Assembly: GCF_003334355.1 (NCBI RefSeq)
Contig: NZ_QOWP01000023.1
Origin: Escherichia coli
GTDB taxonomy: Bacteria > Pseudomonadota > Gammaproteobacteria > Enterobacterales > Enterobacteriaceae
Reading direction: 5' to 3' (one strand)
DNA: 64,000 nucleotides
Both the position numbers and the translations under genes were made by a program. Shown here one piece after another: positions 39,830-59,548 of this stretch (the stretch's first letter is position 1; every line of letters starts with the position of its first letter). The notes under the pieces were generated by a model. That model did not search any database. It had not been told where the DNA came from and saw only the letters and a program-made list of their open reading frames with translations.

Positions 39830-40221
39830 CGATTTATTCCTGTAAGTTTGCTCGTAATTTGAGCCTGGCAACACGAGGTTGCATTGCTGAATAGGGAGAG
39901 ACTTCACCCTCTACAGAAGTCAATGGTCGCCATCACAAAAGCGATGGGTGATGAATAACGACCATTACAGCCTCTGAATCAGTTATTAATATCGGTAGAA
40001 TGACAATCTACGGCTTTAGATACTGATATCTACGCATTGAACGGTATTTAACGCCGTCAGAAATGTCATTACTTTGTTAAATATAGATCACAATTTTGAA
40101 ACCGCTCGGGATATCATCGAAAACATAAGCAAAAGTGAATGTTTTAAGAACATTCCGTAAGCGGCTAATAAGGAAGGGAAATTGACAGGGCGCAGCGGCT
40201 ACCGCGCCCTGGAGGCAAGAA

Positions 40222-41811
40222 TTAATGCTCGCGGGTCTGGTGGAACTGAACGTCCGGATAACGTTCCTGCGCCAGGCGCAGGTTGACCATGCTGGTAGCG
40301 ATGTAAGCGAGGTTATCGCCGCCATCAAGCGCCAGTTGGCTTTCGTTCTTACGCTTGAACTCTTCGAATTTCTTCGCGTCTGCACATTCTACCCAGCGGG
40401 CGGTGGCAACGTTGACTGATTCATATACTGCTTCAACGTTGTATTCGCTCTTCAGGCGCGATACCACCACATCAAACTGCAGCACACCAACCGCACCAAC
40501 GATCAGATCGTTGTTGGAGATTGGACGGAACACCTGCACCGCGCCCTCTTCGGAAAGCTGTACCAGCCCTTTGAGCAGCTGTTTTTGCTTCAGCGGATCT
40601 TTCAGGCGGATGCGACGGAACAGTTCTGGCGCGAAGTTCGGAATACCGGTGAACTTCATCATCTCACCCTGGGTAAAGGTGTCGCCAATCTGAATGGTGC
40701 CGTGGTTGTGCAGGCCGAGGATATCGCCCGGATATGCTTCTTCAACGTGCGAACGGTCACCTGCCATAAAGGTCAGCGCGTCGGAGATCACCACATCTTT
40801 CGCAGTGCGCACCTGGCGCAGCTTCATGCCTTTTTCATATTTACCGGATACCACGCGCATAAACGCCACGCGGTCGCGGTGTTTCGGGTCCATGTTGGCC
40901 TGAATTTTAAATACGAAGCCGGTAAATTTGTCTTCGCTCGCCTCTACGGTACGGGTATCAGTCTGACGCGGCATCGGCGCAGGAGCCCACTCCACCAGGC
41001 CATCCAGCATATGATCGACACCGAAGTTACCCAGCGCAGTACCGAAGAATACCGGAGTGATTTCGCCCGCAAGGAACAGCTCTTTGTCGAACTCATTAGA
41101 CGCGCCTTTCACCAGTTCCAGTTCGTCACGCAGCTGCTGTGCCAGATCTTCACCGACCGCTGCATCGAGATCCGGGTTATTCAGCCCTTTAACAATGCGG
41201 ACTTCCTGAATGGTGTGGCCTTTACCGCTCTGATAGAGATAGGTTTCGTCTTTATAAAGGTGGTAAACGCCTTTAAACAGCTTGCCGCAGCCGATCGGCC
41301 AGGTGATCGGTGCGCAGCCGATTTTCAGCTCGTTCTCAACTTCATCGAGCAGTTCCATCGGGTCGCGGATATCACGGTCAAGTTTGTTCATAAAGGTGAG
41401 GATCGGCGTGTCGCGCAGACGGGTAACTTCCATCAGCTTGCGGGTACGATCTTCAACACCTTTTGCGGCGTCGATAACCATCAGACAGCAGTCCACCGCC
41501 GTCAGGGTACGATAGGTATCTTCCGAGAAGTCTTCGTGCCCCGGGGTGTCGAGCAGATTAACCAGGCAATCGTGATACGGAAACTGCATCACAGACGTAG
41601 TAATGGAGATCCCACGCTGCTTTTCCATCTCCATCCAGTCCGACTTAGCGTGCTGGTTAGAGCCACGGCCTTTTACTGTACCGGCGGTCTGAATGGCCTG
41701 TCCGAACAGCAGCACCTTCTCGGTGATGGTAGTCTTACCGGCGTCCGGGTGAGAAATAATGGCAAAAGTGCGGCGCTTCGCCACCTCTTGCAAATAAGGA
41801 GACAACGTCAT
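40222..41811 (-). CDS. prfC: Peptide chain release factor 3
   Basis: Listed ORF contains [37 protein letters not shown]...; GTPase motifs; start trimmed to 529-aa form. Confidence 0.95.
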
Positions 41812-46192: not shown

Positions 46193-46870
46193 TTAATAGG
46201 GATGCAACACATTACTTGCTTCGCAATGCCGCATACATAACAGAATATCTGCGGCCTCCAACAACCCTGCATCAGAACTGACGCCCAGTTTCGACATCAC
46301 ATTAAATTTATGTGCACGGATCGTTTTGATATTGCGTTTAAGCTGCTCGGCAATTTGTGTCATTGAGTAGCCACGCGACATAAAGCGCAATATTTCTCTC
46401 TCCGTGGGGCTTAGCGTCCGGCTTTGGTTAATGTACCACTGATTGTTCAGTCGGTCGGTCGCCTGACGTACACCATTTAATGACAAAAAGAGTTCCTGAT
46501 GAAAAATCTCCAGCGTTGACGCTTTACTTAATACACCGTCCAGCGGTGATGGCGACAATGAACCAATCAGCCGAGCTTCAATATCATCATCCGCAATAAC
46601 TAAACGCCGGGTACGCGGAAACTTAATCGCCAGTTCAGTCAGGCAAGATAATCCCTCTCTGCGCTCACTTCTCATGGCAGAAAAAGAAAAAATGACCGCC
46701 GCAAACGAGATCCGCGACATGGCATCCTGAAATGACTCCTGACTGGTATAGGTATGGAGCTTATAAGGGTTACCCGCAAACTTTCTGAATAAACTCTCAA
46801 TACCGATACTACTCATGACGCATTTTTCTATGAGTGCGACATTTCTCTTCTTAATTCGGCTGTGTTCCAT
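46193..46870 (-). CDS. bglJ: LuxR-family transcriptional regulator BglJ
   Basis: 225 aa; C-terminal LuxR HTH ([44 protein letters not shown]). Confidence 0.9.
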
Positions 46871-47553
46871 TCTGCGGCATCTCCATAAACAGAAGGCAAG
46901 TTAAGTTCTCTTGCACCCTGCGCGCTATTTATCCATGCATACATTTCAGCGTTGCTGTGAATTGCCAGTCGACGCATCGCACTGTTTTTTTGGGCGCTGA
47001 TAGTTTTATTACTTTTCTTAAGCAACGAAGCTATCTGGTTGATGCCCCATCCTTTACCTAATAGCCGCAGTACCTTGCGCTCTGAAAGAGTGAGAATGAC
47101 GGAGCGATAGCTAAAATCATGAGTTTCAGTCATTGCCGGAGAGGTCAGCATGGCGCTGATACGCTCTGCGTGCGTATTGCCGGAACGTACGGTCTTGACC
47201 AGATTCTCAATGGGTTCAACATCAGACAATAACGTCGCCGTAGGGCACATGAGCAATTCTACTGCCTGGGAATACCAGGAGCGTGACACCATGAAAACCC
47301 AGTGAATTTCCCGATATTGTGAGATTAAAGAATAATAATGTTCACAAACAGAACGTGGATCTTCACTTTCACCGGCTAAATCAGCAATGACTAATCCGGA
47401 ACGACGTAATTGTAATAAGGTAAGGTCCTCCGCAGAGGCGCTGGATATTATTTCATATTCAGGGAAGTGAGTCCTCATGACCTCTTTTAACCCTGCTTGC
47501 ATAACAGGTATTTTACTGATAACAATTCCATTTTTGCAGCATCCTGGCAACAT
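46828..47553 (-). CDS. yjjQ: LuxR-family transcriptional regulator YjjQ
   Basis: 241 aa; C-terminal LuxR HTH ([41 protein letters not shown]); overlaps bglJ start. Confidence 0.9.
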
Positions 47554-48171
47554 ATTTCCTCCACATCCACTGTCTAAAAATCATGATGGTTTATTCAGGA
47601 TATTCATTCCTTAAATGTTTCCAGCAAATTAATAGATTAAGCGAATAAATTATCCTTAGCATTCACTTTCATATCAGCATACTCCTGCTGCACAACAACT
47701 CCACTGCATGTGTCAGAAGGTTAGCATCAAATGATAACCTGGTGAAATAGCCTGGAGACATTTAAAATATCTACATTAAGTTGTTAGAAATACTTAATGA
47801 AAAACAGAAATATCATTCATTTAATTTATAATTCAATGATACCTCTTCCCGCAAAATGCAAAATCACACAACCAATATTTATTCAATAAAATCTGATTGT
47901 TTTAACTTGTTGGCATTAAAAAACGCGCCCAGTTATCTATTATCCTGATTCGTAAAGGCCAAACAATAAATTCATTATGGTGATAATATTCATGTGATAA
48001 TTTGTTTGCGGCGAGAGATAATTCGCTTTTTATCACCGAGCTTCTCCCGATAACCAGGATTAATCAGCGCAATTTTGATCTTAACCTACCGCAAAACAAC
48101 CGTGCTTCATGATACAAATGAATTCTCATTATCTGAACAATACGCAGCACGTCTATGACAAAGGGCGAGTT

Positions 48172-48942
48172 ATGCAAACTGAGCAACAGCGAGCCGTAAC
48201 ACGGCTTTGTATCCAGTGTGGATTATTTCTTTTGCAACATGGTGCGGAAAGCGCGTTGGTTGATGAGCTTTCCTCACGACTGGGTCGGGCGCTGGGAATG
48301 GACAGCGTCGAAAGTTCTATCTCTTCGAACGCCATAGTGCTGACAACCATTAAAGATGGGCAATGCCTGACATCGACACGTAAAAATCACGATCGCGGCA
48401 TTAATATGCATGTGGTGACTGAAGTCCAGCACATTGTGATTCTGGCGGAGCACCATCTGCTGGATTACAAAGGCGTAGAGAAACGATTTAGCCAAATTCA
48501 GCCATTACGTTACCCAAGATGGCTGGTAGCCTTAATGGTTGGCCTTTCTTGCGCCTGTTTCTGTAAACTCAATAACGGTGGCTGGGATGGTGCCGTCATC
48601 ACCTTCTTTGCCAGTACGGCCGCGATGTATATCCGCCAGCTACTGGCACAACGTCATCTTCATCCACAGATCAACTTTTGCCTCACCGCTTTCGCCGCCA
48701 CCACTATTTCCGGTTTGCTTTTGCAACTTCCCACCTTCAGCAATACACCCACCATTGCAATGGCCGCCAGCGTTCTGCTGCTGGTGCCGGGCTTTCCGTT
48801 GATTAATGCCGTCGCCGATATGTTTAAAGGCCACATCAATACCGGACTGGCACGCTGGGCGATCGCCAGTCTGCTGACACTGGCTACCTGCGTCGGCGTG
48901 GTGATGGCACTGACGATTTGGGGGCTACGCGGATGGGTGTGA
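48172..48942 (+). CDS. yjjP: ThrE-family inner membrane protein YjjP (succinate exporter subunit)
   Basis: Listed ORF contains [30 protein letters not shown]...; start trimmed to 256-aa form. Confidence 0.85.
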
Positions 48943-49406
48943 TCGAGTTTCTGTTTGCATTGGCGCAGGATATGATCCTCGCCGCCATTCCAGCGGTCGG
49001 CTTTGCGATGGTGTTCAACGTTCCCGTTCGGGCATTACGCTGGTGTGCGCTGCTTGGCGCGATTGGTCATGGTTCCCGAATGATCTTAATGACCAGCGGG
49101 CTGAATATTGAGTGGTCAACCTTTATGGCTTCTATGCTGGTCGGCACCATTGGTATTCAATGGTCGCGCTGGTATCTGGCGCATCCGAAAGTGTTTACCG
49201 TGGCGGCTGTTATCCCTATGTTTCCTGGCATATCAGCTTATACTGCAATGATTTCGGCGGTAAAAATCAGTCAGCTAGGCTACAGCGAACCGTTGATGAT
49301 TACCCTGTTAACCAACTTTCTTACAGCTTCATCAATTGTTGGTGCGTTATCCATCGGTCTTTCCATTCCTGGATTATGGTTGTACCGCAAGCGCCCTCGC
49401 GTATAA
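48933..49406 (+). CDS. yjjB: Inner membrane protein YjjB (partner of YjjP)
   Basis: Listed ORF contains [30 protein letters not shown]...; overlaps yjjP stop. Confidence 0.85.
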
Positions 49407-49513
49407 AATTGCCTCACTTAAAGCACGCGGATGAGAGACAGCCTCCTCTCCTCCGTGTGTTACTATAAAAGTTATCTCCCTTCTCGTTCATCGTTCCATA
49501 TTTGAGAAACAGT

Positions 49514-59384: not shown

Positions 59385-59532
59385 GGTTTCTCTTTCCTGT
59401 GGACCGATGCAAGATTTTCGGCCAGGAAAGGAAAAACTTTATGAATATCCCGCGGAGATTACGCCGAGTAATTTTATTCACACTCTGAATTTAAAAAGCC
59501 ATTATTTACATAAATTACTCACAATATAAATA

Positions 59533-59548
59533 TGTGATATGAATCACA
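59533..59548. promoter_or_regulatory. CRP-like binding site in the tsr-btsT intergenic region
   Basis: tgtgatatgaatcaca matches the CRP consensus TGTGA-N6-TCACA. Confidence 0.5.

Follow-up and report, generated by a model that had tools for sequence, protein, structure and literature searches.

The AT-rich yjjQ-yjjP spacer of Escherichia coli: the known H-NS/LeuO control region, with conserved edges around a variable AT-rich centre

The AT-rich gap separating yjjQ from yjjP in an Escherichia coli contig is, very probably, the control region that the divergent operons yjjQ-bglJ and yjjP-yjjB share, and contains no further gene. It is the already known H-NS/LeuO control region and, in that respect, ordinary. 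The initial annotation of this DNA had called the region expected rather than new, and it has indeed been described previously.

The window is the whole stretch of 64,000 nucleotides that was analysed, and all coordinates refer to it. In the RefSeq annotation, yjjQ is a minus-strand gene (46828-47553) and yjjP a plus-strand gene (48172-48942), bglJ lying beyond yjjQ and yjjB beyond yjjP, so that the operons yjjQ-bglJ and yjjP-yjjB are divergent. Because yjjQ ends at 47553 and yjjP starts at 48172, the gap is exactly 47554-48171, and no feature is present within these limits in the RefSeq annotation of the window:

47554-48171, unstranded: whole yjjQ-yjjP intergenic control region, 618 bp, GC 0.34, from annotation and composition.

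By sequence comparison, 47400-48300 is 100% identical to E. coli strain 214-4 (NZ_CP025840), and a counterpart of this segment was found in 5,425 of 5,426 complete E. coli genomes. The MG1655 counterpart of the gap, 4602859-4603476, is likewise 618 bp in length and 97.1% identical to the gap analysed here. It is devoid of annotation, as are the counterparts in each of 60 records drawn from across 5,424 E. coli genomes. The allele carried by this strain is a minority one, being matched at 99% identity or more in only 243 of the 5,424 genomes.

Annotation and composition agree with the initial description of the gap as an AT-rich 618-bp divergent region between the two operons, gap GC being 0.340 vs 0.520 for the whole 64-kb window. 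Across the whole window, 618-bp stretches with a GC below 0.37 form a single cluster which includes the gap, with starts at 47245-47657, and the minimum GC of any 618-bp stretch in the 64 kb is 0.332, at 47509. The gap ranks third by length among the annotated gaps of the window and is the longest outside the lambdoid prophage, which occupies the first ~41 kb. That it holds no ORF of 60 aa or more was also correctly stated at the outset, the longest internal ORF detected by the ORF scan being 44 aa, and two longer ORFs merely touch its right edge. One of these uses an in-frame upstream ATG at 48109 and would yield a 277-aa YjjP, and the other is an antisense ORF of 65 aa at 48153-48350.

The length of 618 bp depends on the yjjP start; a start at 48109 would give 555 bp. 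Stratmann et al. 2008 reportedly counted 555 bp, using an older yjjP start. Comparison of the loci supports 48172, rather than 48109, as the probable start of yjjP. This start is favoured because a cAGGG ribosome-binding sequence is conserved in front of it, indels break the upstream frame in other Escherichia and a conserved -10-like element lies over 48109.

Regulation of the locus by H-NS and LeuO is documented. In PMC5025477 and PMC3950696, two later publications by the group behind Stratmann et al. 2008, yjjQ-bglJ is described, with citation of that study, as repressed by H-NS and activated by LeuO, and the title of the 2008 study also names the divergent yjjP as H-NS/LeuO-regulated. Genomic SELEX further located an RNA polymerase site flagged 'HNS' in the yjjP-yjjQ spacer (PMC3946193). 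All three reports agree with the initial identification of the region as H-NS-silenced and LeuO-activated. The low GC content of the gap is that of an H-NS-silenced region, and 54 related loci are similarly AT-rich. Stratmann 2008 reportedly places H-NS binding in the centre and distal to the promoters. The centre of the gap, 47804-48053, is presumably the H-NS nucleation zone. A search with the H-NS high-affinity motif TCGATAAATT was not informative, its three loose matches in 618 bp being no more than AT-richness predicts.

For LeuO, the core ATATTCA-N5-TGAATAT was derived by comparing the cas and leuO spacers of K-12, in which the palindromes ATATTCA-TACTG-TGAATAT and ATATTGA-TTTGG-TGAATAT, respectively, were found. 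The search was guided by the verbal description of the core palindrome in PMC6698644. Because the motif was reconstructed in this analysis, the LeuO sites are candidates only:

47600-47618, plus strand: candidate LeuO-core-like 7-5-7 sequence ATATTCA-TTCCT-TAAATGT, with mismatches at 2 of 14 positions.
47986-47992, plus strand: candidate LeuO-like half-site ATATTCA, inside the Escherichia-conserved block ATGATAATATTCAT.

The first candidate is one of three pattern matches in 64 kb, a number no greater than expected by chance window-wide. The half-site is located 186-187 nt upstream of yjjP in all Escherichia, and the ATATTCA 7-mer occurs in 24 of 54 intergenic regions vs 8.5 in shuffles. A Fur box at 47983-48001 was discarded, only 9 of 19 positions matching by eye.

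Conservation was investigated among 10 E. coli alleles (95.3-100% identity) and 80 Enterobacteriaceae loci recovered by a YjjP search. At nearly all 80 loci, yjjQ-bglJ lies upstream of yjjP-yjjB in divergent orientation. The operons face each other directly at 54 loci from many genera, across 347-709 bp with a GC of 0.30-0.44, and a pobA-pobR pair is situated in between at 22 loci (Klebsiella, Raoultella, Kluyvera, the Citrobacter amalonaticus group and others). Four-fold sites of yjjQ and yjjP, of which 35 of 237 are variable, served as the neutral reference. Among the 10 alleles, the gap has a three-part pattern:

47604-47803, minus strand: nearly invariant yjjQ promoter/leader zone, 3 of 201 columns variable (p = 2e-7 vs four-fold sites).
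47804-48053, unstranded: fast-evolving AT-rich centre with a GC of ~0.32 in every allele, pi 0.04-0.085, 50 of 252 columns variable (p = 0.15 vs four-fold sites).
48054-48171, plus strand: conserved yjjP promoter/leader zone, 4 of 118 columns variable (p = 0.001 vs four-fold sites).

The low variation observed in the outer zones indicates strong purifying selection on both edges. Substitutions accumulate in the centre at an approximately neutral rate, yet its composition is kept, GC remaining at 0.30-0.34 in all alleles and in three further Escherichia species in which most of the central sequence differs. The layout is that of divergent promoters, with outer zones carrying ribosome-binding sequences and -10-like footprints on either side of a neutral-rate centre, the promoter positions themselves being predicted. 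Derivation of the centre from a decayed pobR-pobA remnant was considered and rejected; tblastn matches were at chance level only (E >= 2) and nucleotide similarity did not rise above shuffles except in the yjjP-proximal 100 bp.

The assignment of promoters on both sides of the gap is a prediction from the footprints. On the yjjQ side, alignment of the yjjQ-proximal 270 nt and a promoter scan yielded the following features:

47558-47562, minus strand: yjjQ Shine-Dalgarno sequence GGAGG, 4 nt before the ATG, from sequence; GGAGg is conserved in 76 Enterobacteriaceae loci.
47649-47677, minus strand: predicted proximal yjjQ promoter-like site CTGATA-17-GATAAT, from the promoter scan.
47723-47728, minus strand: predicted distal yjjQ -10-like element GATGCT, from the cross-genus footprint.
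47756-47797, unstranded: conserved block TTTAAAAT ... TTAGAAAT upstream of the yjjQ promoters, from the alignments.

An identical prediction of the proximal promoter has been published (PMC3946193), and the sequence AAGGATAA, which is conserved in Escherichia, Citrobacter and Salmonella, matches the predicted -10. The distal GATGCT is aligned to an extended -10 in other genera (TGnGATATT/TGTGATAAT). That element reads TGCGATATT or TGTGATAAT there and only TTTGATGCT in E. coli, in which the predicted distal -10 is weak. The block at 47756-47797 is identical across Escherichia species and partly conserved across genera.

On the yjjP side, the footprints are derived from an alignment of the yjjP-proximal 170 nt from 76 loci, and 48075-48170 is similar to Citrobacter loci:

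48074-48079, plus strand: TTGATC, conserved in >90% of the 76 loci, from the alignment.
48110-48119, plus strand: extended -10-like element TGATACAAAT, consensus tG.tAaAa, from the cross-genus footprint.
48162-48165, plus strand: yjjP Shine-Dalgarno sequence AGGG, 6 nt before the ATG at 48172; cAGGG is conserved in the 76 loci.

Transcription of yjjP is predicted to start at ~48125, a position which agrees with the observation that an IS1 insertion at ~48061 leaves yjjP expressed. The predicted -10 (TACAAA/ACAAAT) is weak and lacks the canonical -7T. TTGATCT is found in 51 of the 54 short intergenic regions. TTGATC was rejected as a sigma-70 -35, being accompanied by no -10 at 15-19 nt in any genus, and fits poorly by eye as a sigma-54, FNR or CRP site.

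The yjjQ-side zone also contains a site for MarA. A MarA ChIP-seq peak with the site gcatcaaatgataac has been reported in the yjjP-yjjQ spacer of ETEC H10407 (PMC5684230 Table 1), and purified MarA bound this site at 0.3 uM, the lowest concentration tested (PMC5684230). The published sequence corresponds to 47724-47738 of the window, where it was scored with a marbox PWM built from 32 other MarA ChIP sites:

47724-47738, plus strand: marbox GCATCAAATGATAAC, MarA binding site, from published ChIP-seq and in vitro binding and from the PWM.
47849-47863, plus strand: predicted second marbox-like sequence CCGCAAAATGCAAAA, PWM score 13.4, rank 1 in the 64-kb window.

The published site has a PWM score of 11.2 and ranks 14 in the 64-kb window. 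Only E. coli and its closest relative possess it, a G-to-A change lowering the score in other Escherichia species (L004-L006). The second marbox-like sequence sits in the variable centre and carries, in this strain, one change relative to K-12 (A at 47854). To our knowledge, no MarA-dependent change in the expression of either yjjQ or yjjP is known.

IS insertions in the yjjP/yjjQ spacer recur, and are beneficial, as K-12 adapts to the mouse gut (PMC5094792, PMC4674774), and one such insertion raised yjjP expression ~2-fold (PMC5094792). The positions given are -256/-363, -185/-430 and -111/-500, the first figure of each pair being the distance from yjjP (PMC5094792 supplementary tables). In the window these correspond to:

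47916-48061, unstranded: span of the three gut-selected K-12 IS points, IS5 at ~47916, IS2 at ~47983-47987 and IS1 at ~48061.

All three points precede the conserved yjjP promoter zone, lying either inside the centre or on its right-hand boundary. Combined, the IS positions and the conservation zones fit a model in which a central H-NS platform is flanked by promoters at the edges and an insertion frees yjjP. The initial annotation mentioned neither the MarA site nor the recurrent adaptive IS insertions nor the three-part conservation.

The explanation we propose is as follows. The core promoters and leaders would be contained in the conserved outer zones, 47554-47803 for yjjQ and 48054-48171 for yjjP, and the ~250-bp centre would be kept AT-rich with its sequence free to change. 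H-NS would nucleate on the centre, spread and silence both promoters, LeuO would bind within and beside this central platform and restructure the H-NS complex, and MarA would bind the marbox on the yjjQ side. An IS inserted between the centre and the yjjP promoter would separate the promoter from the silencing platform, resulting in more yjjP expression, as at bgl. The present analysis shows the identities of the genes, the composition, the three-part conservation and the conserved promoter and ribosome-binding motifs, published work supplies H-NS repression, LeuO activation, MarA binding and the IS sites with their effect on yjjP, and we infer the exact promoter hexamers, the transcription starts, the identities of the LeuO sites and the nucleation of H-NS in the centre.

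A possible, although rather unlikely, alternative is that the centre is a neutrally drifting spacer at AT-biased mutation equilibrium, on which H-NS binding is a by-product and not selected. Variation of the centre at the rate of four-fold sites is consistent with drift, as are the wide variation in spacer length between genera (347-709 bp) and a GC of ~0.32, which is near the value expected under AT-biased mutation. Such a mutational bias in bacteria is reportedly the subject of Hershberg and Petrov 2010 and of Hildebrand et al. 2010. Drift does not readily account for the presence of a long AT-rich spacer in nearly every genus with the direct arrangement, nor for genus-conserved elements located in the centre, for example ATGATAATATTCAT. 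In addition, the IS insertions that separate the centre from yjjP are selected and alter expression, indicating that the centre acts on the yjjP promoter. Drift of the centre addresses why the region is AT-rich rather than what role it has, and is compatible with the control region proposed above.

The initial annotation had further pointed to the gap as a natural location for a small RNA or small protein missing from the annotation, and neither suggestion was borne out. With respect to a small RNA, the gap has no annotation, Rfam match, covariation or convincing promoter-terminator pair. No Rfam 15 match with E <= 1 was obtained for 46500-49500 on either strand, and a convincing pairing of a separate promoter with a Rho-independent terminator was recognised on neither strand. 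Folding of the yjjQ leader alignment gave a covariation term of +0.56 with 1 of 51 pairs compensatory, and even among Escherichia the centre lacks conservation. In a sliding-window fold scan of both strands the mean z was -0.29, and the sole strong signal was an AT inverted repeat, at which both strands fold because it is a DNA palindrome:

47806-47846, unstranded: AT inverted repeat, followed on the minus strand by GUUUUUC.
48010-48027, plus strand: weak terminator-like hairpin, -5.4 kcal/mol, z -0.7, not significant.

The hairpin at 48010-48027 is not conserved, and 47 of 200 shuffles fold as well. Two further candidates were rejected, a putative 92-nt RNA whose folding is not significant and a long-range 14-nt inverted repeat (47611-47624 / 47752-47765) which is lost in L004-L006. 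Full-text literature searches revealed no paper mentioning a small RNA or small ORF at the yjjQ/yjjP locus. Entries for yjjP or yjjQ are absent from the Nakahigashi 2016, PIRT-seq 2025, Kim 2012 and Adams 2021 supplements, the locus being silent in laboratory culture. Absence from start-site, 3'-end and translation tables says little because the locus is silent under laboratory conditions. With respect to a small protein, a scan of ORFs of at least 8 aa, with Shine-Dalgarno energies and intactness across 14 Escherichia sequences, detected no conserved ORF. The candidates included the following:

47637-47672, minus strand: 11-aa upstream ORF MKVNAKDNLFA, probably due to chance, with Shine-Dalgarno sequence AGCAGGAGU, -6.9 kcal/mol, spacing 8.

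Two readings would nevertheless place an additional element in the gap, one at the AT palindrome and the other in an ORF. The palindrome core, 47819-47837, has a 7-5-7 architecture that is perfect in K-12 (ATTTAAT-TTATA-ATTAAAT), is altered by one change in this strain (C at 47834) and has half-sites that differ from the inferred LeuO core. On the minus strand, the hairpin 47846->47806 together with GUUUUUC could form an intrinsic terminator, representing a cis-acting RNA element or belonging to an unannotated yjjQ-sense transcript, which we consider very improbable. Such a terminator might keep spurious or divergent transcription that begins in the AT-rich centre or at the yjjP promoter from reaching the yjjQ promoters, or it might be where a non-coding RNA of ~300 nt, silenced by H-NS, has its 3' end. 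The hairpin is stable (-11.9 kcal/mol, z -4.7), a value reached by none of 200 shuffles, and a hairpin of -8.8 to -13.2 kcal/mol with its U-run is retained in 11 of 11 E. coli-like alleles despite several substitutions. The minus strand also has promoter-like sites, 48155->48128 and 48137->48109, which are arranged divergently from the yjjP promoter. However, the stem, with no more than two G-C pairs, was not accepted by the terminator scan, and the hairpin is absent in the other Escherichia species L004-L006, in a zone that evolves at a neutral rate. No nearby 3' end is present in the Term-seq tables searched, a weak argument as the locus is silent. A dimeric DNA-binding protein would account for the 7-5-7 architecture no less well, and the palindrome at 47806-47846 more likely represents a protein-binding site than a terminator.

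A small protein encoded in the gap by an ORF of 11 aa (47672->47637), 30 aa (47761->47669) or 44 aa (48036->47902) is very improbable. Predicted Shine-Dalgarno duplexes of -6.9 and -7.4 kcal/mol, the best among the ORFs scanned, precede the 11-aa and 44-aa ORFs, respectively, and the reading frame of the 30-aa ORF is uninterrupted in 13 of 14 Escherichia sequences. The 11-aa ORF, which could couple translation to yjjQ-bglJ expression, is positioned within the zone under strong purifying selection and is intact in E. coli and at locus L003, where variation with which the ORF could be tested is nil. Against this, a 1-nt deletion cuts the 11-aa ORF to 2 codons in L004-L006, no counterpart is found in other genera, and the promoter and MarA sites explain why this zone is constrained. 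Just 6 of the 14 sequences keep the 44-aa ORF intact. The 30-aa ORF lacks a Shine-Dalgarno sequence, ~50% of its residues are common to E. coli and L004/L005, and its pN/pS of 0.74-0.81 resembles that of out-of-frame controls (0.75-1.67). None of the candidate ORFs is annotated in MG1655 or the 60 sampled genomes, and the locus has no entries in the TetRP or PIRT-seq tables, which says little for a silent locus. Overall, we regard it as improbable that either the palindrome and U-run are a working terminator insulating yjjQ-bglJ or the 11-aa ORF is translated and gates yjjQ-bglJ.

The shared control region proposed here corresponds directly to the E. coli K-12 yjjQ-bglJ/yjjP region (Stratmann, Madhusudan and Schnetz 2008, J Bacteriol 190:926), being the same locus with the same flanking genes. 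It resembles the bgl operon, in which an AT-rich silencing region adjoins a weak promoter and silencing is relieved by IS elements and LeuO (PMC9678765, PMC2646131). The bgl operon has a single promoter, with upstream and downstream H-NS sites that are thought to loop, whereas the gap has two divergent promoters on one central platform and the IS effect on yjjP is only ~2-fold. bgl is also activated by BglJ-RcsB. We know of no BglJ-RcsB site in the yjjQ/yjjP spacer. The leuL-leuO spacer is similarly a long AT-rich divergent spacer (659 bp in K-12) that is H-NS/StpA-repressed and LeuO-bound, and it is also a MarA ChIP-seq target (PMC5684230); leuO is activated by BglJ-RcsB and autoregulated (PMC5025477). 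Like the promoters of the mar/sox/rob regulon, the gap contains a marbox bound by MarA in vivo and in vitro (PMC5684230). Unlike textbook class I and class II sites, this marbox is backwards relative to yjjQ and overlaps the predicted distal -10.

The locus, where silencing by H-NS and its relief by LeuO have already been described, carries little weight as a discovery. If either the terminator or the ORF were real, a terminator/insulator or a leader peptide would be added to the control of BglJ and YjjQ, regulators which feed the leuO, bgl and flagellar circuits, and an RNA-level layer would be imposed on a locus at which control has been attributed to DNA-binding proteins alone. The comparison illustrates the evolution of such a region, two constrained promoter zones being maintained around a centre that is constrained in composition and free in sequence, and ties this three-part pattern to the published mouse-gut IS positions and the published MarA site.

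Over 90% of the 76 aligned Enterobacteriaceae loci retain the hexamer TTGATC (window 48074-48079) upstream of yjjP, approximately 95 nt 5' of the yjjP start codon. The extended form TTGATCT is present in 51 of the 54 short spacers, in which yjjQ directly faces yjjP, and GCACAAA often occurs before TTGATC in the aligned loci. A role for TTGATC as the sigma-70 -35 of the conserved -10-like element is excluded by the spacing. Within the variable spacer centre, one allele (L089) carries ATA in place of TAT at window 47827-47829, precisely at the midpoint of the AT palindrome, such that the spacer of the palindrome is inverted while its symmetry is retained. This inversion would be the expected product of template switching at the hairpin.

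Diversity differed between the divergent genes, four-fold-site values being 0.021 for yjjQ (window 46828-47553) and 0.068 for yjjP (window 48172-48942), despite a separation of only 618 bp. The YjjQ protein WP_000936635.1 has the same sequence in nearly all sampled E. coli. Low yjjQ diversity could be explained if the yjjQ side had undergone a sweep or spread recently, or if its DNA were under constraint. In the E. coli genome collection, alleles at least 99% identical to the window's spacer were detected in only 243 genomes and 3 of the ∼5,440 spacer matches were plasmid-labelled records.

In other genera, the two genes are separated by a pobA and pobR pair, observed in 22 loci and located in one of them as follows:

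L060 1375-4001: pobA-pobR pair between yjjQ and yjjP

The 21 further loci are L007, L008, L014, L022, L037, L038, L041, L043, L046-L051, L064, L065, L067, L072, L073, L078 and L079, and the hosts include Klebsiella, Raoultella, Kluyvera and the Citrobacter amalonaticus group. pobA codes for 4-hydroxybenzoate 3-monooxygenase and pobR for an AraC-type protein. At these loci the yjjQ and yjjP promoters lie ∼2.6 kb apart and do not have a common spacer. No pob remnants were found in the E. coli yjjQ/yjjP gap.

Elsewhere, window 1 to about 41400 (∼41 kb) is occupied by a lambdoid prophage inserted beside yjjG. It contains tail, head, lysis and Q-antiterminator genes, an insertion of the IS66-family element ISEc43, a 133-aa CDS bearing the odd name 'valyl-tRNA synthetase' and an integrase:

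Window about 40168-41391: prophage integrase

The tsr-hpaR spacer (window 59474-59533) contains adjacent loose matches, TTATTCACACTCTGAATTT and TTACTCACAATATAAATAT, to the inferred LeuO-type palindrome ATATTCA-N5-TGAATAT, the remaining two such matches within the 64-kb window. The pair could serve as an operator for HpaR or a different regulator.

Disruptions of the locus were also observed. In L084 3792-5000 (strain PS3Tanimalfeces2, cat source), a natural IS1 insertion is accompanied by a deletion which removed the bglJ 5' end, the entire yjjQ gene, the full spacer and the first yjjP codons. E. coli K-12 strain PG20180053, from mouse gut, carries the nonsense mutation W117* in yjjP (L002 4773-5543), whereas in laboratory evolution IS insertions 5' of yjjP are reported to increase its expression in mouse gut (PMC5094792, PMC4674774). 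W117* and the expression-raising insertions point to opposite directions for selection at the yjjP locus.
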